Source: Candidatus Poribacteria bacterium (GTDB lineage Bacteria > Poribacteria > WGA-4E > WGA-3G). From it: 64,000 bases of DNA. The notes under the pieces were generated by a model. That model had not been told where the DNA came from, ran no database searches, and saw only the letters and a list, made by a program, of their open reading frames with translations. A program made the position numbers and the translations under genes. The DNA lies in NCBI GenBank assembly GCA_965218285.1, contig OZ244616.1, forward strand, positions 5,960,270-6,024,269, given 5' to 3'. This document shows, in pieces, positions 15,698-54,508 of this stretch (position 1 is its first letter; every line of letters starts with the position of its first letter).

Positions 15698-16884
15698 TAC
15701 CAAATTAACGGGATTCATATTGTTTTTCGATTTCACAAATCCATTGAAACCCGACATGTGGCTGCACAATGTCCCAGTTTTTTGAGAACCATTGACACCG
15801 ATTGACAAGCACTTTTTCAAGAGACGAAAGTGTTTTCAGGACACGATTGGCGATCACTTCTCGTAACAAAGGCCAAAGTCGTTCGGCAGGTTGTAGTTCT
15901 GGCGAATAAGGAGGCAAATAAAACAACTCAATGCCCGCAGGCACTTGCACCGCTTTACTTATGTGAAACCCTGCGCGATCCACAAGCAGCACTATCTGTT
16001 TCTTTGCTTCGGGATTCACATCGCGCGCAAACTCTGCCAGTGCAAGGTTCATCACCTCAACACTGACGGTGGGCAATAGAAGCCAGTAGGTTTCGCCTGT
16101 CTGCGGACGAACGAAACCGAACCCGTAGAGCCATTTATGTGCCGGGCAAACCGTTGCCGTTGGTCGCACGCCTTTTTTCGCCCATACACGTCGGTGAACC
16201 GGTAATAAACCCAAACGGGTTTCGTCTTCCGCCCAAACTTCTACCGGTTTTTCCGGGTGCTCACTTTTAAGGGCAGCAACACGCTCTTCTAACTTTTTTT
16301 TAAAGGTCTGCTGTGCCTCCGGTGTCGCAGCGGCTTGATGTTGCGGACGCGGTCTCTGCAAAGTCCAACCAAGTCTTCTAAGATATTTCCAACCTGTCAC
16401 GGCACTCACAGGTCGCTTCAGTGTCTCAGATATCCAAGTCGCAACTTTGGGACCTGTCCAGAGCCCGCCATCAATAGGCGGTGCCGAAAGTGCTTTTTCA
16501 AGGGATGCTTGCTGTTGTGCATCAAGGAAGGGACGCCCACCATTGGTTTTTCGTTTGTCTCGCAGTGCCTCTTCGCCATCAGCGTTATAGTGCCTGCGAA
16601 GTTTCCTAACGCAGTCAGGCGTGCAGCCAACGATGTCCGCAACTTCGCGCGGTTTTCTCGGATTTTCGGTGTCAGCAAGGAGCCAAATCGCATGCCACCG
16701 CATCCGTTCCCGTGGGCATTCACATGCCAGATACCTTTGTTTCAATGCTTCTATTGACAAATGAGGTGAAACTCCGTGTTTAGGGTTTTTCATGTGTGGT
16801 GAAACTCCGTGTTTAGGGTTTTTCATGTGTTTAGTGTAGCAGATTAAAAAAAATAAAACAATACGAATTCCGTTAATTTGGTAT
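15698..16884 (-). mobile_element. IS630-like element 2 (apparently intact), inserted in a REP array
   Basis: About 25-bp terminal inverted repeats taccaaattaacgggattcatattg / caatacgaattccgttaatttggta. TA on both flanks. These termini match those of the family C MITEs. Confidence 0.8.
15705..16826 (-). CDS. IS630-family DDE transposase
   Basis: HTH N-terminus, then DDE region (WAEDETRLG ... LLVDRAGFH ... LQPAERLW). The 5' end has a 33-bp tandem duplication (MKNPKHGVSPH x2), so the real start may be 16793. Confidence 0.85.
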   Translation of the reverse strand: MKNPKHGVSPHMKNPKHGVSPHLSIEALKQRYLACECPRERMRWHAIWLLADTENPRKPREVADIVGCTPDCVRKLRRHYNADGEEALRDKRKTNGGRPFLDAQQQASLEKALSAPPIDGGLWTGPKVATWISETLKRPVSAVTGWKYLRRLGWTLQRPRPQHQAAATPEAQQTFKKKLEERVAALKSEHPEKPVEVWAEDETRLGLLPVHRRVWAKKGVRPTATVCPAHKWLYGFGFVRPQTGETYWLLLPTVSVEVMNLALAEFARDVNPEAKKQIVLLVDRAGFHISKAVQVPAGIELFYLPPYSPELQPAERLWPLLREVIANRVLKTLSSLEKVLVNRCQWFSKNWDIVQPHVGFQWICEIEKQYESR

Positions 16885-17404: not shown

Positions 17405-18001
17405 ATGTATCATTATCGTAAACTTACTCCTGAACAGAAAACAGAAGCCGTGCAACAGCGGCAGTTGAGAGGCATGCCAAATCATAGACCACCACGTTTC
17501 GGTAACACCAGCGGATGGTTTCTCATTACCGCATCTACCTTTGAACATAAACCATATTTCAATACCGACGAAGATAGGACACAGCTTTTCGATGAAATAC
17601 AAAAAGAACTTGTGGATGTTGAAATACTTATTAGTGGTTGGAGCATATTGGCGAACCATTATCACCTTTTAGTTGAATGTAATCCACTTTCATCAATTAG
17701 CCAACCGATACGACGTGTCCATGCCCGTAGTGCACGTGAATTGAATCGACGTGATGAAGTGTCCGGGCGCAAAGTATGGCACCTTTTCAGCGATCGACAT
17801 ATTCGCAATGAACGCCATTATTACACAACTCTAAACTACATCCATTATAATGCGACAAAACATGATTATGTGGAAAAACCTTCAAACTGGATGTGTTCAA
17901 GTTTACATTGGTATGAAGAGCATTTTGGGATAGAATGGTTACGGGATCTGTGGCGTAAATATCCTGTGCGGAATTATGGAAAAGGATGGGATTGGATATA
18001 A
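17405..18001 (+). CDS. REP-associated tyrosine transposase (RAYT; IS200-like HUH/Y1 family)
   Basis: HUH motif in LANHYHLLVE and a Tyr motif in LNYIHYNATKHDYV. About 198 aa. Flanked on both sides by REP copies in inverted orientation. Confidence 0.75.
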   Translation: MYHYRKLTPEQKTEAVQQRQLRGMPNHRPPRFGNTSGWFLITASTFEHKPYFNTDEDRTQLFDEIQKELVDVEILISGWSILANHYHLLVECNPLSSISQPIRRVHARSARELNRRDEVSGRKVWHLFSDRHIRNERHYYTTLNYIHYNATKHDYVEKPSNWMCSSLHWYEEHFGIEWLRDLWRKYPVRNYGKGWDWI

Positions 18002-23295: not shown

Positions 23296-24105
23296 ATGCT
23301 GCCTTTTGTTTTCAAAACCGTAGATGAACCGATACAACGTCTTCATCGTCTGTATAGTGAAGATAGTAGTATAGATGTAGAAGTTTTAACAGAACTCTAC
23401 ATCAGCGAGTTTAGCGGATCGCACACTGAAGAACGGACTCTGGACTTCCAGAGACAGAACCGTGCAGTTTTACGCGGTGCCCAAGATGCAGCATATAACG
23501 CATTTACCACTTTTCTCCACCAGATTTCTGAACCGGAATCTTTTCTTCCTATTGAGTTACTTTCCCAATATCCGTATCAGCGATATACCTTAATCCTCTC
23601 AGTGGCTCGTTCCTATGAATTACATGAGGTGTTTCAGAGTACCTCCGACACCATACGGATGGATCAGGGTAATTCCATTTTTGAATATGAAGGTTATGAG
23701 CTTTCTTTAAATGCCAAACACCATATTCTTGATTCGTCTGCTTATCTTGTTGCTCCAGAAAAATTTACGGTATTTATCCGACGAGTCAATGATGCTGAAA
23801 ACATCCGATTCTATCGGAGTAAATTCATTGATCTAACAGACAATGCCCCTCCACCTTTCCATCTAAATCCTCAAGAGATTATTGAAACTGTTCAACAGGA
23901 TATTGCCAGCAGGGAAAGTACAATGCCAATAAGTCAAATGTTACTGTTTCCTCCAACAACTGATACAGAAACGGAGGAGGTTAAACACCTGACAAACTGC
24001 CCTGAATGTAACGGTGAAGTGAGGCGTATCAGCAAAAGCTATTTCTGCTTGCAGTGCGACTGGGATAACCTACCCCCTTTAGAACGTTATTCTGGTGTTC
24101 GGTAG
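23296..24105 (+). CDS. Hypothetical protein with C-terminal zinc-ribbon-like CPEC...CLQC
   Basis: 269-aa ORF with no recognisable family. C-terminal CPECNGEVRRISKSYFCLQCDW. Isolated between MITEs. Confidence 0.45.
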   Translation: MLPFVFKTVDEPIQRLHRLYSEDSSIDVEVLTELYISEFSGSHTEERTLDFQRQNRAVLRGAQDAAYNAFTTFLHQISEPESFLPIELLSQYPYQRYTLILSVARSYELHEVFQSTSDTIRMDQGNSIFEYEGYELSLNAKHHILDSSAYLVAPEKFTVFIRRVNDAENIRFYRSKFIDLTDNAPPPFHLNPQEIIETVQQDIASRESTMPISQMLLFPPTTDTETEEVKHLTNCPECNGEVRRISKSYFCLQCDWDNLPPLERYSGVR

Positions 24106-24107
24106 TG

Positions 24108-24955
24108 TAGTGCTTTGTCCACCAAAATATTGTAAGTCGGGTAGAGCAGAGCGAAACCCATTAGCGTCAATTAACGCAACGGACGAGAATATCAGCGTTC
24201 GTAGTCGCGCAATTCATAGCGCCTCTTACATTCAAATGTCCGAGGCGCAATTCATTGCGCAACTACAAACGAGTCCTTTCCTTAAATTGACGCTAATGGT
24301 GCGGTTTTGCGGTGTACTCACCCAAATGCAATCTGCATTCCTAACCGAACCTTTTTGTATCAACACCTCAAATAACGCAAAGGACGAGAATATCAGCGTT
24401 CGTAGTCGCGCAATTCATAGCACCTCTTACATTCAAATGTCCGAGGCGCAATTCATTGCGCAACTACAAACGAGTCCTTTCCTTAAATTGACGCTAATGG
24501 TGCGGTTTTGCGGTGTACTCACCCAAATGCAATCTGCATTCCTAACCGAACCTTTTTGTATCAACACCTCAAATAACGCAAAGGACGAGAATATCAGCGT
24601 TCGTAGTCGCGCAATTCATAGCACCTCTTACATTCAAATGTCCGAGGCGCAATTCATTGCGCAACTACAAACGAGTCCTTTCCTTAAATTGACGCTAATG
24701 GTGCGGTTTTGCGGTGTACTCACCCAAATGCAATCTGCATTCCTAACCGAACCTTTTTGTATCAACACCTCAAATAACGCAAATACGAGAATATCAGTGT
24801 TCGTAGTCGCGCAATTCATAGCGCCTCTTACATTCAAAGAAAAGAGGCGCAATGAATTGCGCGACTACGAACGAGTTCTTTCCTTAAATTGACGCTTATG
24901 GGTTTCGCGGACGCTCTACCCGACCTACAGACCACAAAAATTAGGTGGACAAAGC
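24108..24955. repeat. Large palindromic composite element containing a 201-bp tandem repeat (3 units plus a partial one)
   Basis: Units start at 24181, 24382, 24583 and 24784. Each unit carries a REP doublet plus aggtgcggt-type sequence. Outer inverted repeats ctttgtccacc/ggtggacaaag and gtcgggtagagc/gctctacccgac. The 201-bp period (67 codons) explains the spurious 265-aa ORF. Confidence 0.8.
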
Positions 24956-24983: not shown

Positions 24984-25595
24984 TCATCCTGAGGGTGGTA
25001 AAAAATGGTAAAAGAGCATTGTATTAACAATTGCCAAAAGTGTTCCAGCCACAGTTTGCATGAGGGTATGCTTCTCACGATAAACTCGCGCCCAAGCGAT
25101 TAGTGGGATAAGCAGGAATAACCACACTAAATTCAAACTGACAAGTAACGATAAAACAATAATACAACCTGTAGCAACACTTGTGTGAAAACTAATTTTC
25201 CATAATGGCGTAATAATTGAGAATACTACGCTGTTAACGATGTAAGTTTGGCATACCCATATAATTCCTTCATTTGCCCCAATCTGATAAAGTACAATAG
25301 TTCCCAAAATCATGCTGATTAGCGTGAAACAGAGCGGAATCAACCGTTCTTCTTTGGCGTGTAAATGTAAATCGCTCACCTTTGAGAACCGAAGAAGCAC
25401 AACAATGGCTAATATCGGTAGAGTTGTTACAAACGTCAATACAACGGCTAACCAGAGTATAATTTCGTTGGTTGTACTTGCATATTTTTGGATAACGAAG
25501 ATTGCCGTTACAATAGGCACAACAAACGGACTAAAAATTACGGATGTTCCTAAGGCAATCCAAGTGGGCAATACCGAGGAAGTCTTATGTGTCAT
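24984..25595 (-). CDS. Polytopic membrane protein, weakly PAP2-like
   Basis: Six predicted hydrophobic spans. ISFHTSVATG and ARVYREKHTLMQTVAG resemble PAP2 motifs 2 and 3. The start overlaps the stop of the upstream peroxiredoxin ORF (TGATTGATG). Confidence 0.45.
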   Translation of the reverse strand: MTHKTSSVLPTWIALGTSVIFSPFVVPIVTAIFVIQKYASTTNEIILWLAVVLTFVTTLPILAIVVLLRFSKVSDLHLHAKEERLIPLCFTLISMILGTIVLYQIGANEGIIWVCQTYIVNSVVFSIITPLWKISFHTSVATGCIIVLSLLVSLNLVWLFLLIPLIAWARVYREKHTLMQTVAGTLLAIVNTMLFYHFLPPSG

Positions 25596-25598
25596 CAA

Positions 25599-26624
25599 TC
25601 ATTCTTTTGGCGTTTCAACGGTTTTGAAGAAATTCGCCAAATCTGACCCATGTGTGACTGGGTTGACCTCTTTATCAATTTTCACAATTTTCCCTGCTTT
25701 ATCAATTATAACCGTCAAACGTTTTAGCCGTTTCTCTTCTGGTTTTTTTACAGCACCAAAGAGTAGGGCGAGGTTTTTCTCCGTATCCACTAAAAGTGGA
25801 AAATTCAGACTATTGTCTTCCGTAAATTTCTGATGCGACTTCGCATCATTGACTGTAATTCCAAAGACTTGGACGTTGTTTTCAGCAAAACTACTCGACT
25901 CATCACGGAGCGAGCAAACTTCTATCGTTCAGCCACGACCAAAATCGCGCGGATAAAACGCTAAAACGACGTTCTTTTTTTCATGCAACTTGCTGAGTTG
26001 ATGCAATTTGCCTTTACCGTCTTTGGCGATAAAATCGGGGGCTGGCTGACCAACTTCTATTTTGGGAAGCACCTCCTTAAGCAGTGTGACGACGTCCGCA
26101 CCGTGCGTCTTAACCTTGACTTTTTTATCAATTGCGCGTATATATCCCGCCTTATCAATAACGAATGTAGTGCGTTTTGAAGCATTGAACCTTTCAATAA
26201 TGCCACTATACTGCTTGCTAACCGCAAACTCAGTATCTGCCAACAATGAAAATCCAAACTTATTTTTTTCCTTGAATCTTTTATGCGATTCAACAGCGTC
26301 TACACTTACACCAAACAGGACAGTTTCAGTATCTTCTATCTCGCTCAATTTTTCCCGGAGCGAGTTAAGTTCGGCAGTTCAGCCACCCGTAAAATCTTTC
26401 GGATAAAAGGCAAGAACAACGTTTTTCTTCCCCAAGAATTCGTTGAGACTTCTTTCAGTGTCTGTCTCATCATTTAAAGTGAAATTTGGTGCAACCATGC
26501 CGACTTTAAGTTCATTAAGTTCATTTGAATTTTCCACTTCTTTCTCCGCTAAAGCTGCTGAAATCAAGAATACTGTTATTAATAACAAGACTCCAACATA
26601 TCGAATAGATAGTTTTTGCAACAT
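25599..26624 (-). CDS. Exported tandem PrxQ/BCP-like peroxiredoxin with two in-frame TGA codons (candidate selenocysteines)
   Basis: Track ORFs 26379..26624, 25929..26348 and 25599..25790 share one frame (offsets 276 and 558 nt). The only interruptions are TGA at 26379-26381 and 25929-25931, each at the peroxidatic position: FYPKDFTGG-U-TAELNSLRE and FYPRDFGRG-U-TIEVCSLRD. Signal peptide and GAGGAA RBS are present. Confidence 0.7.
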
Positions 26625-26777
26625 TACTTTATTCCTCTAAAATAGGTTATTTTCACGTGAACTACGAGTGTAGCGTAGGGTTTTATATGTGATGCCACCA
26701 TAGGCGTCAATTTAAGAAAATATCTGTCCGTTTATGAACACTTCTCAATAGGCATGACTATTGAGACTGTCCCATAT

Positions 26778-51572: not shown

Positions 51573-51968
51573 ATGAATGTCTCACCAGGTGAGAAACTCA
51601 CCCGTTTTATTCGTTATAGCAATCAGTTTTCCCATGTTAAGGGGGAGGTAAGATACAGAGCGTTTATTCCACCTAAAAATAGTATAAATCTGTCTGTGTT
51701 CCGTATATCATTACCTCCAGAACTCTCAAACAACGCAGTATGGAAGATTGGACTTGACTATGTCGAACGAGAAGGAATACCAATAAAGGCACGCGCCGAT
51801 CTATTTGTGAGTGATGTTGCTGCTAATAACCTTGAAGTCATTTCTGACGAGCCACCTCCGAGGCATGCGAATATCACACCGTTTCCTGCAGACAACAAAG
51901 CGCGGCAAAGTATAGCCAGAAAACTTGCTCATGCCAGTAAATTAGTTGTTATACCAGAAAAAACCTGA
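51573..51968 (+). CDS. Hypothetical protein
   Basis: 131-aa ORF starting at the ATG of the TGATGA that abuts the element. No family recognised. Overlaps the track extension of hsdM. Confidence 0.45.
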   Translation: MNVSPGEKLTRFIRYSNQFSHVKGEVRYRAFIPPKNSINLSVFRISLPPELSNNAVWKIGLDYVEREGIPIKARADLFVSDVAANNLEVISDEPPPRHANITPFPADNKARQSIARKLAHASKLVVIPEKT

Positions 51969-51996
51969 TTCCAGTCAAAACAAATTAAGGGTATAC

Positions 51997-53463
51997 ATGT
52001 CCAACGAATCAGCAACAATCGTTCAAAAACTATGGAATTTCTGCAATGTGCTCCGAGATGATGGAGTCAGTTACGGAGATTACGTCGAACAACTCACGTA
52101 TCTACTTTTTCTCAAACTCGCTGACGAACAGAGCAAACTATCCTCTAACACATCATCTAATTTACCTTCTGGTTTGGATTGGGAAAGTCTGCTCAAAGAA
52201 AGCGGTGCTGCGTTAGAGGATCAATATGTCAGAATCCTTCGAGAATTGAGCAATGAGAAAGGTTTGCTTGGTGTGATCTTCAGAAAATCGCAAAATCGCA
52301 TTCAGACACCTGCCCACCTTCAACGCCTCATCAAGCTCATTGATGCCGAGATTTGGAGCGAGATGACAGATGATGTCAAAGGCACAATTTACGAAGGACT
52401 TTTGCAGAAAAACGCTGAAGATACAAAAAGTGGTGCAGGACAGTACTTCACACCCCGTTCACTTATCAAAGCAATTGTTACCGTGATGCAACCTAAACCG
52501 ATGAAGACGATTTGTGATCCAGCATGCGGAACAGGAGGATTTTTCCTTGCTGCGTACGAGTACATATCTGAACAGTACCGCACAACATTAACTCGTAAAC
52601 AGAAGAAGTTTCTCAAATTTGAGACCTTTGCTGGAACAGACATCGTTGATAATGTTGTACGTCTCTGTGTAATGAATCTATACCTGCACAGCATTGGTGG
52701 CACAGAGAGTCCAATTACAACTGATGATAGTCTAAGCAAGGATCCGGGCAAACGCCACGATATGGTGCTGACGAATCCACCATTCGGTAACAAGAGTAGT
52801 GTTACAATCACTGCCGATGGTGAAAAACGGAGTAAGGCATCACTCACGTATGAACGCGATGATTTTTGGACGACGACTTCAAATAAACAGTTCAACTTCC
52901 TGCAACACATTAAAACGATTTTGAAGGAAGATGGTCGCGCTGCCGTGGTACTCCCAGACAATGTCCTATTTGAAAGAGGAGCAGGTGAAACGATTCGCAG
53001 GCAACTGCTTAAACTTTTTGATGTTCATACATTGTTACGATTGCCAACTGGTATCTTCTATGCACAAGGTGTGAAGGCAAACGTACTCTTTTTTGACAAA
53101 CGTCCTGCGCGTGAGGAACCGTGGACACAGAAACTTTGGATATATGACCTGCGGACGAACAAACGTTTTACCCTCAAGACAAATCCCTTAGGCGATACCG
53201 ACCTACAGGATTTTATTAAAGTCTACAATCCAAAGAACCGTCACGAACGGACTGAAACAGAATGTTTCCACGCCTTCAGTTACGAGGAACTTATCCAACG
53301 TGAACATGCCAACCTTGACATCTTTTGGCTAAAAGAGGATTCACTTGAAGATGCAGCGGATCTTCCAAAACCAAATATATTAGCTGAGGAAATCACACAG
53401 AATTTACAGACTGCCTTGGAACAGTTTCAGAACATCCAAGCAGAATTAGGCGACAGCGACTAA
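51997..53463 (+). CDS. hsdM: Type I restriction-modification N6-adenine DNA methyltransferase
   Basis: HsdM N-terminal motif LWNFCNVLRDDG, AdoMet motif DPACGTGGF, catalytic NPPFG. ATG 51997 preferred over the track start 51946. Confidence 0.9.
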   Translation: MSNESATIVQKLWNFCNVLRDDGVSYGDYVEQLTYLLFLKLADEQSKLSSNTSSNLPSGLDWESLLKESGAALEDQYVRILRELSNEKGLLGVIFRKSQNRIQTPAHLQRLIKLIDAEIWSEMTDDVKGTIYEGLLQKNAEDTKSGAGQYFTPRSLIKAIVTVMQPKPMKTICDPACGTGGFFLAAYEYISEQYRTTLTRKQKKFLKFETFAGTDIVDNVVRLCVMNLYLHSIGGTESPITTDDSLSKDPGKRHDMVLTNPPFGNKSSVTITADGEKRSKASLTYERDDFWTTTSNKQFNFLQHIKTILKEDGRAAVVLPDNVLFERGAGETIRRQLLKLFDVHTLLRLPTGIFYAQGVKANVLFFDKRPAREEPWTQKLWIYDLRTNKRFTLKTNPLGDTDLQDFIKVYNPKNRHERTETECFHAFSYEELIQREHANLDIFWLKEDSLEDAADLPKPNILAEEITQNLQTALEQFQNIQAELGDSD

Positions 53464-53522: not shown

Positions 53523-54508
53523 CGCTCATGTCAAGAGTAAGTGCTTTTGACGAGTTTTGCTATAAAATCAACACTGACAGCTTTTAGATTCATGACGAAC
53601 TCACAGATTGCGACGTAACCGGCGAGGAACTTTTTATGAACGCCACGAAAGGGACGAAGGAAGTTTCGCAGCGTCGTCCAGGCACCTTCAATCGTATTTG
53701 TATGGATCTCGTAAAGACCATCACCGTCTGCGTCTCTTGCCCACTCGCCATCCTTATGGAGAACAATTTCACGGGCGCGCTGAATACGGTTATAGCCGCG
53801 CCAACCATCCGTATACACCGTTGAAGTCGGCAGCGTAAACTGATGAACGTGTGTTGAAAGCGTCGCAGAATCGGTGTGCCGCACAACACGTAATCTCAGG
53901 AGACCGCTTTCGCGACCTTTCGTCCCAACAATAGGCGGACGATCATTGTCATAAGTCCCATGTCCCCTGCGTTTATTGCCACGCCGACGCGGCGGATCCG
54001 AAGCATCAACGTGCTTATCGCCTTTTTCACCGGCGTTTTGAAACATCTCATCTGTTTCGACTTCAGCATCGGGTAAAGCAGCTTCGGGCTGTATCTGCTC
54101 TGCCGAAGTTTGGAGTTTACGTCTTATAGAAAGAACGGTTTGACGACTTAGACCCAGTTCACGCCCGAGTTGTGCACTTGAAACACCTTGACAGACACCG
54201 CGCAAAAGCAGAACGACCTGTGAGGGACGAAACTGCGTGCCAGCAAAGACCGTCCCGGTATAGAGGTTGTAGATGCTCTCACAGTGTTTGCAGCGATACA
54301 CTTGTAGACCACTTGTTTCAGTCTTACGGAACTTGCGTGCCTCCGCCACGCTCGCTTGGCATTTTGGGCAACACAGCCCTTGAGGGTGGAAATGATCCAA
54401 CACCCACGCTTGAGTTTTTTCTTCATCCATGAGAGATTGTATTGGAAAGTCCATAGGTAACACTCTAACATAACTTTGAAAAAATAGCACTTACTTTTTA
54501 CATGAGCC
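53523..54508 (-). mobile_element. IS1595-family insertion sequence with 8-bp target duplication gcaaaata
   Basis: Termini cgctcatgtcaagagtaagtgct / agcacttactttttacatgagcc are inverted repeats. gcaaaata at 53515-53522 and 54509-54516. Confidence 0.8.
53531..54490 (-). CDS. IS1595-family (ISXO2-like) transposase
   Basis: N-terminal zinc ribbon (CPKC...CKHC), HTH, DDE-like C-terminal domain (VETDEMF ... VYTDGWRGY ... NTIEGAW). The real start may be 54454. Confidence 0.8.
   Translation of the reverse strand: MLFFQSYVRVLPMDFPIQSLMDEEKTQAWVLDHFHPQGLCCPKCQASVAEARKFRKTETSGLQVYRCKHCESIYNLYTGTVFAGTQFRPSQVVLLLRGVCQGVSSAQLGRELGLSRQTVLSIRRKLQTSAEQIQPEAALPDAEVETDEMFQNAGEKGDKHVDASDPPRRRGNKRRGHGTYDNDRPPIVGTKGRESGLLRLRVVRHTDSATLSTHVHQFTLPTSTVYTDGWRGYNRIQRAREIVLHKDGEWARDADGDGLYEIHTNTIEGAWTTLRNFLRPFRGVHKKFLAGYVAICEFVMNLKAVSVDFIAKLVKSTYS

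Follow-up and report, generated by a model that had tools for sequence, protein, structure and literature searches.

A tandem PrxQ/BCP-type peroxiredoxin gene of Candidatus Poribacteria with two predicted selenocysteines and two SECIS-like hairpins

Selenocysteine (Sec)-containing peroxiredoxins (Prx) of the COG1225/PF00578 type, which carry a TxxU motif, are among the most abundant selenoproteins of marine bacteria, with 43 genes counted in the Sargasso Sea in 2005 and 253 in the Global Ocean Sampling (GOS) data in 2008 (Zhang and Gladyshev). Among the 119 families of prokaryotic selenoproteins inventoried in 2026, Prx is entered with one Sec, and a small subset of families has 2-3 Sec (PMC13188914). 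The gene described here, named dPrx, is located on the minus strand (25599..26624) of a stretch of 64,000 nucleotides (nt) from a Candidatus Poribacteria bacterium (contig OZ244616.1), which is called the window below; Candidatus Poribacteria are sponge symbionts. dPrx is one gene, not three, and sequence comparisons make it highly likely that it encodes a tandem PrxQ with two selenocysteines, whose codons are each followed by a selenocysteine insertion sequence (SECIS) element.

dPrx shares with the marine Sec-Prx family the BCP/PrxQ type (COG1225), the use of Sec for the peroxidatic Cys in the PxxxTxxU motif, a SECIS just downstream of the UGA, the marine setting and the presence of PrdB-like selenoproteins in the same genomes. 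Members of the marine family are single-domain proteins with one Sec (PMC13188914, Table 1), whereas dPrx has two fused domains, two predicted Sec residues, two predicted SECIS elements and a signal peptide, and its domain 2 is usually without the Thr of the TxxU motif. An ordinary one-Sec protein that serves for comparison is encoded in a Planctomycetota metagenome-assembled genome (MAG; locus L030, TGA at 6154 of the plus strand), and is a single-domain Prx whose in-frame TGA occupies the peroxidatic position (FFFPLAFTPV-U-SRELPAC). PrxU of Eubacterium acidaminophilum, an experimentally verified Sec-peroxiredoxin (NF040737), also has Sec at the peroxidatic position, but belongs to another Prx subfamily, and dPrx reaches only 101.4 bits with the PrxU model, under the cutoff of 270. 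PrxU is a single-domain, cytoplasmic protein of a strict anaerobe.

The atypical 2-Cys PrxQ/BCP proteins, such as Bcp1 (3DRN), Xanthomonas campestris PrxQ and Escherichia coli BCP, have the fold, the active-site architecture and the active-site Arg in common with dPrx, and their CxxxxC spacing is mirrored as UxxxxC in dPrx domain 2. Unlike dPrx, these proteins use Cys and are single-domain, and they are usually monomeric. Exported peroxiredoxins of the cell envelope, such as Caulobacter PprX, are reduced via TlpA/ScsB. They have a signal peptide and act outside the cytoplasm, as predicted for dPrx; dPrx, in contrast, adjoins the gene of a PAP2-like membrane protein and no gene recognisable as that of an envelope reductase (DsbD, ScsB, CcdA or TlpA). 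More than one Sec per polypeptide, as in the predicted dPrx product, is found in bacterial multi-Sec selenoproteins such as MbdU, an arsenite methyltransferase/AhpD fusion with 3 Sec and the UxxU proteins (PMC13188914). The families listed there with 2-3 Sec include no Prx duplication; in dPrx the two Sec sites are paralogous and the SECIS elements share register and loop sequence.

A phrase search of the open literature for tandem or double peroxiredoxins gave nothing relevant. An earlier note on this DNA, made from the sequence alone, had presented a secreted fusion of two Sec-containing Prx domains as something not described before, and this stands for the tandem two-Sec architecture, which is the only part that appears undescribed. 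The novelty is more modest than the earlier note implied, because Sec-containing BCP-type Prx already form a major and very common family of marine selenoproteins, so that dPrx is an architectural variant of a known selenoprotein family and no new kind. dPrx may already be counted among the 'Prx' matches in the Poribacteria genome WGA-3G, its architecture having gone unnoticed.

The reading frame of dPrx has 342 codons, which correspond to 341 residues, including the two predicted Sec, and a terminal TGA (25599-25601). Its only internal stops are at codons 82 (UGA-1, 26379..26381, predicted Sec82) and 232 (UGA-2, 25929..25931, predicted Sec232), both TGA, and retranslation agrees with the proposal that three short minus-strand open reading frames (ORFs) belong to one frame interrupted by these two codons only. 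The TGAs are flanked by FYPKDFTGG-TGA-TAELNSLRE at site 1 and by FYPRDFGRG-TGA-TIEVCSLRD at site 2; the coordinates, peptides and hairpins first reported for the gene are right to within 1 nt. A Shine-Dalgarno (SD) sequence GAGG (26634..26637), read from the sequence, lies 9 nt 5' of the ATG (26622-26624), and both elements are kept in most Poribacteria loci compared, one locus (L018) having GGGA instead.

In public records dPrx is present as three pieces of 78-81, 139 and 63-70 aa (e.g. MCE2402184.1), and the fragments are named peroxiredoxin, redoxin domain-containing protein or SCO1/SenC (clusters of P0121 and P0136). Full-length database entries (P0001-P0017) come from gene calling under genetic code 4 and have Trp at both Sec sites, and P0001 is additionally translated past its real stop into a W-containing C-terminal tail. 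In the DNA fetched for the metagenome proteins with W at both sites, which go down to 48% identity, each W is a TGA read under code 4.

The tandem form was found only in Candidatus Poribacteria when contigs of one genome per species were searched with the protein, the downstream gene and the family alignment. The closest relative, with 96% amino-acid identity, is in the 5.9-Mb chromosome-level MAG assembly OZ250160.1. The fetched set comprises 95 copies of the tandem gene, which are 67 distinct nucleotide versions, and comes from several unbinned metagenome contigs and from about 60 loci in Poribacteria genomes, among which are several MAG assemblies at chromosome level (for example OZ250160.1, OX638351.1 and OZ244889.1) and the single-cell genome WGA-3G (L217). 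UGA-1 is TGA in all 95 loci and UGA-2 is TGA in all fetched tandem versions, so TGA/TGA is found in 67/67 distinct versions, with TGC or TGT in none of the independent assemblies and no further stop within the span. The dN/dS ratio is 0.18 before UGA-1, 0.08 between the two UGAs and 0.10 after UGA-2, and these low values show purifying selection on all three segments, which indicates that they are translated; the homologues do not end at the TGAs as three separate genes. Candidate tandem homologues from other taxa were rejected, being two adjacent yet separate Cys-Prx genes in Ignavibacteriales, Prx-thioredoxin-like fusions with Cys in Chthonomonadales and Armatimonadota, and a single-domain protein in Thorarchaeota.

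With Cys put in for the two internal stops, the dPrx product matches two AhpC-TSA domains in Pfam (PF00578, E 1.7e-67), and its best NCBIfam model is NF006960, the BCP-type thioredoxin-dependent thiol peroxidase, which it matches with 178.7 bits, above the cutoff of 140. Domain 1 (26070..26504, about residues 41-185) has the active site PKDFTGG-U and is placed by Pfam, NCBIfam and a phmmer alignment to 3DRN and AhpE, while domain 2 (about residues 191-341; 25602..26054), whose best Pfam stretch covers residues 191-315, has the active site PRDFGRG-U-TIEV-C. Domains 1 and 2 share 40% identity. In phmmer searches against solved structures, in which Bcp1 of S. solfataricus (3DRN) comes top and AhpE of Mycobacterium tuberculosis next, each TGA falls on the peroxidatic position, and U aligns with the Cys of the nearest single-domain PrxQ homologues, e.g. 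FYPKAMTGGCTREVCSLRD. The alignments to Cys-containing PrxQ/BCP homologues and to solved structures therefore agree with the placement of both TGAs at the peroxidatic Cys proposed earlier.

Domain 1 fits the PxxxT/SxxC motif of peroxiredoxins (P-KDF-T-GG-U). Domain 2 fails this motif (P-RDF-G-RG-U) and retains the Pro and the peroxidatic position; the Thr is replaced by Gly, with a gained Arg (FGRGU), in 54 of the 67 versions and is retained in 13, which are deeper-branching. The active-site Arg, in a beta-strand about 70 residues further downstream, is kept in both domains: K-R-TTFVIDK of domain 1 aligns with a-R-ITFVIDK of 3DRN, and K-R-LTVIIDK of domain 2 aligns with domain 1. The position five residues after U is Cys in domain 2 of 67/67 versions (U-TIEV-C, the resolving-Cys position). 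The corresponding residue of domain 1 is N in the window, which makes this domain of the 1-Sec type in the window protein, and across the versions it is Q in 28, C in 14, R in 11, K in 9 and N in 5. The earlier statement that this Cys is kept in domain 2 and absent from domain 1 thus holds for the window protein, and is refined by the 14 of 67 orthologue domains 1 that have it.

Some relatives lack one of the catalytic residues. P0019-P0021 (L036 and L037) have Ser in domain 1 (VGS-T), and P0015, P0018, P0022 and P0023 have Gly at the domain 2 site (LGG-T); all of them keep the tandem layout and the other UGA, which suggests that the fusion has a structural role too. An AlphaFold2 (AF2) model was built on P0002, a 70% identical homologue with W at the Sec sites, and is a confident one, with a pLDDT of 83 and a pTM of 0.81. 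Each modelled domain superposes on Bcp1 (3DRN), the best Foldseek match, with a TM of 0.88-0.92 per domain, and Foldseek found no PDB chain that covers both domains (TMq at most 0.43).

A hairpin follows each UGA. The predicted SECIS-1 (26340..26364), which starts 14 nt past the UGA, has a perfect 7-bp stem CUCGCUC/GAGCGAG and an 11-nt loop CGGGAAAAAUU, and is recovered at the position first described as the minimum-free-energy fold. The predicted SECIS-2 (25892..25916), also a minimum-free-energy structure, is UGCUCG-CUC [CGUGAU] GAG-(U)-CGAGUA, with 9 bp, a bulged U and a 6-nt loop; a hairpin with a bulged U had been described here at 25891-25917 with about 10 bp, and its limits prove to be 1 nt off. 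Both hairpins are in one register, with the 5' arm at nt 16-24 from the U of the UGA and the loop from nt 25, and the loops open with CG(G/U)GA some 21 nt beyond the UGA, which puts a G second in each loop. Both this spacing and this G match the bacterial SECIS consensus (PMC13582414).

The hairpin stretches are nearly invariant in 26 Poribacteria sequences, third codon positions included, and the neighbouring codons, whose amino acids are likewise conserved, vary freely. Normalised synonymous entropy is 0.013 at site 1 (SLRDKLS) and 0.06 at site 2 (CSLRDESS), with a gene mean of 0.58, and these two stretches are the lowest in the gene besides a patch after the signal peptide. The SECIS-1 core sequences UCGCUCCGGGA and UUGAGCGA are near-invariant in the Poribacteria compared, with a lone G-to-U change in L031. 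In divergent homologues the site-1 hairpins take the site-2 architecture, with the lower stems AGUCA/UGACU, GCUCA/UGAGC and AGUCG/UGACU. Among 31 distinct sequences, standard pairs occupy 95.3% of the pair cells, against 32-45% when the partners are slid, and two pairs show compensatory double changes (CG to GC and GC to AU); the observed covariation score was reached by 2/500 shuffles. Seven cells scored as unpaired at one position are G-to-A changes, which by inspection re-pair with the formerly bulged U. The resemblance to SECIS noted earlier is in this way extended to a conserved, covarying hairpin after each UGA, with the loop CG at the same distance.

The machinery for Sec insertion is reported in the lineage. 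Peng et al. 2016, whose queries for the Sec trait were E. coli SelD, SelA and SelB, list WGA-3G (15 selenoproteins) and WGA-4E (5) among the Sec-utilizing organisms (PMC5029168, Table S2). By column count, Table S4 of Slaby et al. 2017 gives SelA 2, SelB 1 and SelD 1 for WGA-3G, and the same SelA/SelB/SelD pattern is present in two sponge bins taken as Poribacteria from their COG profile (PMC5649159). WGA-3G itself carries the two-TGA dPrx gene, so on these published tables Sec machinery is present in a genome that carries the gene. Sec-type NiFeSe hydrogenases are also reported in Poribacteria (PMC13582414). A pattern scan of genome contigs for tRNA-Sec showed no Poribacteria among the at least 120 matches listed, whose taxa are unordered, and is uninformative either way; the supplements of the tRNA-Sec paper do not mention Poribacteria. 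A PrdB/GrdB-like gene (PF07355) occurs in the flanks of dPrx in L006 (minus strand, TGA at 4019) and L012 (plus strand, TGA at 853). It has an in-frame TGA at the UxxC site of its family (TPV-U-PMC) and an 8-bp hairpin 13 nt downstream, and is predicted from these features to be a second selenoprotein gene of Poribacteria.

For dPrx to be made as a two-Sec tandem PrxQ, SelB with Sec-tRNA(Sec) would bind each hairpin when the ribosome reaches the UGA, so that Sec is inserted. Each selenolate would then reduce peroxide, being converted to selenenic acid. The invariant Cys at U+5 of domain 2 would resolve this intermediate as an intramolecular selenenylsulfide, in the manner of the CxxxxC pair of PrxQ, while domain 1 of the window protein, which has no resolving Cys, would be a 1-Sec site that uses an external thiol. 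These steps are modelled on established PrxQ and bacterial Sec biology.

Several observations weigh against this reading. Two UGAs in series are expected to cut the yield of full-length protein. The z-scores of single-sequence folding are modest and weak as evidence (-1.9 at site 1 and -1.3 at site 2), and it is the comparative evidence, not single-sequence folding, that sets the hairpins apart from chance. No SECIS family of Rfam gave a match, either at gathering or at permissive thresholds. Neither the window nor the fetched flanks yielded selA, selB, selD or tRNA-Sec: these regions show no tRNAs, their 20 largest ORFs include no sel genes, and the sole match to SelA/SelB/SelD motif patterns is IF-2. 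No Cys-containing orthologue occurs among the tandem genes found, which is unusual for selenoprotein families. The peroxidase chemistry of domain 2 may also be altered in comparison with domain 1, since a near-universal active-site Thr is gone in 54/67 versions.

The main residual alternative to the two-Sec protein is SelB-dependent insertion of Cys, by which the UGAs would be recoded via the same SECIS/SelB route but as Cys by tRNA-ReC (SelC*-type), giving an all-Cys tandem PrxQ. tRNAs of this type exist, act with SECIS elements and show enrichment in genomes that have two UGAs close together (PMC13582414), and the sequence data fit insertion of Sec and of Cys alike. However, tRNA-ReC are known from a minority of Sec-type genomes, about 17%, and published tables place Poribacteria among the Sec users, with SelA and SelD besides SelB. 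The UGA and a constrained hairpin are present at both sites in the 67 sequences, never UGC or UGU, which argues that the residue is not simply Cys. Insertion of Cys is accordingly considered improbable.

That translation simply ends at the UGAs, the locus being three short genes or a decaying pseudogene, would agree with the three pieces held in databases, and is very improbable. Each piece is part of a Prx fold, broken precisely at the catalytic residue; the second and third pieces are without a conserved start or SD of their own, and neither stop is ever TAA or TAG instead of TGA. The frame, its length and the low dN/dS also persist past both stops in the 67 sequences, down to 48% identity. 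It is hardly credible that this lineage uses TGA as a sense codon (code 4 or 25), or that a near-cognate tRNA reads through it, so that Trp or Gly would stand at both sites, as in the W-containing products of metagenome gene callers (P0001-P0017). TGA is the ordinary terminator of 8/44 other window ORFs, including pyrF, whose Pfam match runs to the profile end, and a scan of the 64-kb window gave no other convincing case of a TGA-bridged ORF or selenoprotein gene. The C-terminal tail of P0001 marks the code-4 call as an artefact, and both domains are strongly constrained, although they would be inactive with Trp or Gly as the catalytic residue. Sequencing or assembly errors for TGC or TGT, although these codons are one base apart from TGA and nothing else speaks for them, deserve next to no weight, as TGA is at both positions in all assemblies fetched, from many projects and naming schemes and including a single-cell genome. 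Given TGA/TGA in 67/67 versions, the dN/dS values and ordinary termination at TGA, there is for practical purposes no room for a reassigned code, a decaying pseudogene or sequencing errors.

The N-terminus of dPrx has, by inspection, the canonical features of a Sec-type signal peptide (residues 1-26, MLQKLSIRYVGVLLLITVFLISAALA, then EKE; 26547..26624), as had been proposed: basic K4 and R8, then a hydrophobic core and an A-x-A cleavage motif. This pattern is conserved across loci while the sequence varies, residues 1-28 are disordered in the AF2 model, and several of the nearest Cys homologues have, by inspection, hydrophobic, signal-peptide-like N-termini. The signal peptide would be cleaved via the Sec pathway, and because the precursor carries it the full-length form is predicted to be exported to the cell envelope.

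Directly after the signal peptide there is a candidate internal start (26535..26549), noted from its conservation, in which an SD-like GCGGAG (26544-26549) is followed after 6 nt by an in-frame GTG (26535-26537, Val30). This patch, GCGGAGAA(A/T)GAAGUGGAAAAACC, contains the SD-like GGAG, the spacer and the GTG, and has zero synonymous variation in 26 genomes. In other clades the amino acids differ here, but an SD-like motif with ATG or GTG is kept at this position (GCGGAGGAGAACCAG-ATG, AAGGAGCATTCA-ATG and GGGGAGGAGGCA-GTG), and the conserved arrangement is seen also in L034, L035, L036, L039 and L214-L232. In the L036/L037 lineage, which is without a signal peptide, the gene begins at this GTG and has an in-frame TAA upstream. 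The conserved SD with GTG or ATG suggests a second isoform made by alternative initiation, and dPrx would probably give a cytoplasmic form as well as the exported one.

The operon partner of dPrx (24984..25598, minus strand), placed by adjacency and motifs, encodes a 204-aa polytopic membrane protein that is distantly PAP2-like, and its ORF starts 0-3 nt after the dPrx stop in the window and within 0-13 nt overall. It is directly 3' of dPrx in 26/26 Poribacteria loci and in the metagenome contig L039, and dPrx is upstream of it in 44 of the 47 Poribacteria loci whose upstream side is covered; the two genes would be co-transcribed. The downstream partner named in the earlier note is therefore a conserved neighbour in nearly every locus, with a sub-threshold Pfam match (PAP2, 24.1 bits, below the gathering value of 27.2). 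Of the PAP2 motifs, it has the motif-like SFHTS and ARxYRxxHTxxQ, with Q for the last D, and no clear KxxxxxxRP. The motifs WKISFHTSVxTGC and WARxYRxxHT and the membrane Cys residues are invariant in L001-L031 and L040-L083, and a profile search of the PDB found no relative. The membrane gene is present without Prx in deeper-branching Poribacteria (L084), Anaerolineae and Gaiellales. It is a doubtful proposal, put forward tentatively from the arrangement of the genes, that one mRNA gives an exported and a cytoplasmic two-Sec peroxidase, and that the exported form and the PAP2-like protein form an envelope redox/lipid-hydroperoxide module specific to sponge-associated Poribacteria.

A conserved 269-aa ORF (23296-24105, plus strand) faces the Prx-PAP2 pair convergently in most loci of Poribacteria; it has no Pfam match and ends in a C-terminal CxxC...CxxC zinc-ribbon-like motif. 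Between this ORF and the PAP2-like gene there is a 201-bp tandem repeat (24167-24901, 3.7 copies, 96% matches), whose unit contains an internal inverted repeat. In L001, a relative with 96-98% identity, only about 35 bp occupy this place, which marks the array as a recent insertion. Elsewhere in the window, at 1263-2798, 15705-16826, 17405-18001, 51946-53463 and 53531-54490, there are genes for a TIR/SEFIR-domain protein, three transposases (DDE_3, IS200-like Y1 and IS1595-like) and HsdM, a type I restriction-modification methylase. These genes fit the defence- and mobile-element-rich genomes reported for sponge symbionts.

With dPrx the catalogued prokaryotic selenoproteins gain a distinct architecture, and a single bacterial mRNA offers a natural example of two paralogous SECIS elements in series. 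The gene also reveals that annotation goes wrong systematically: all Poribacteria genomes and sponge metagenomes checked have it split in three or mistranslated with Trp. The locus gives two leads, dual initiation and a membrane partner, and the strict pairing with the membrane protein is a concrete lead to the function of that partner; if the proposed module exists, it would be a previously undescribed combination of Prx and PAP2-like proteins in the envelope. For the biology of the organism, the predicted protein points to a defence against peroxides that depends on selenium and acts in the cell envelope, in a phylum that is dominant among sponge symbionts.

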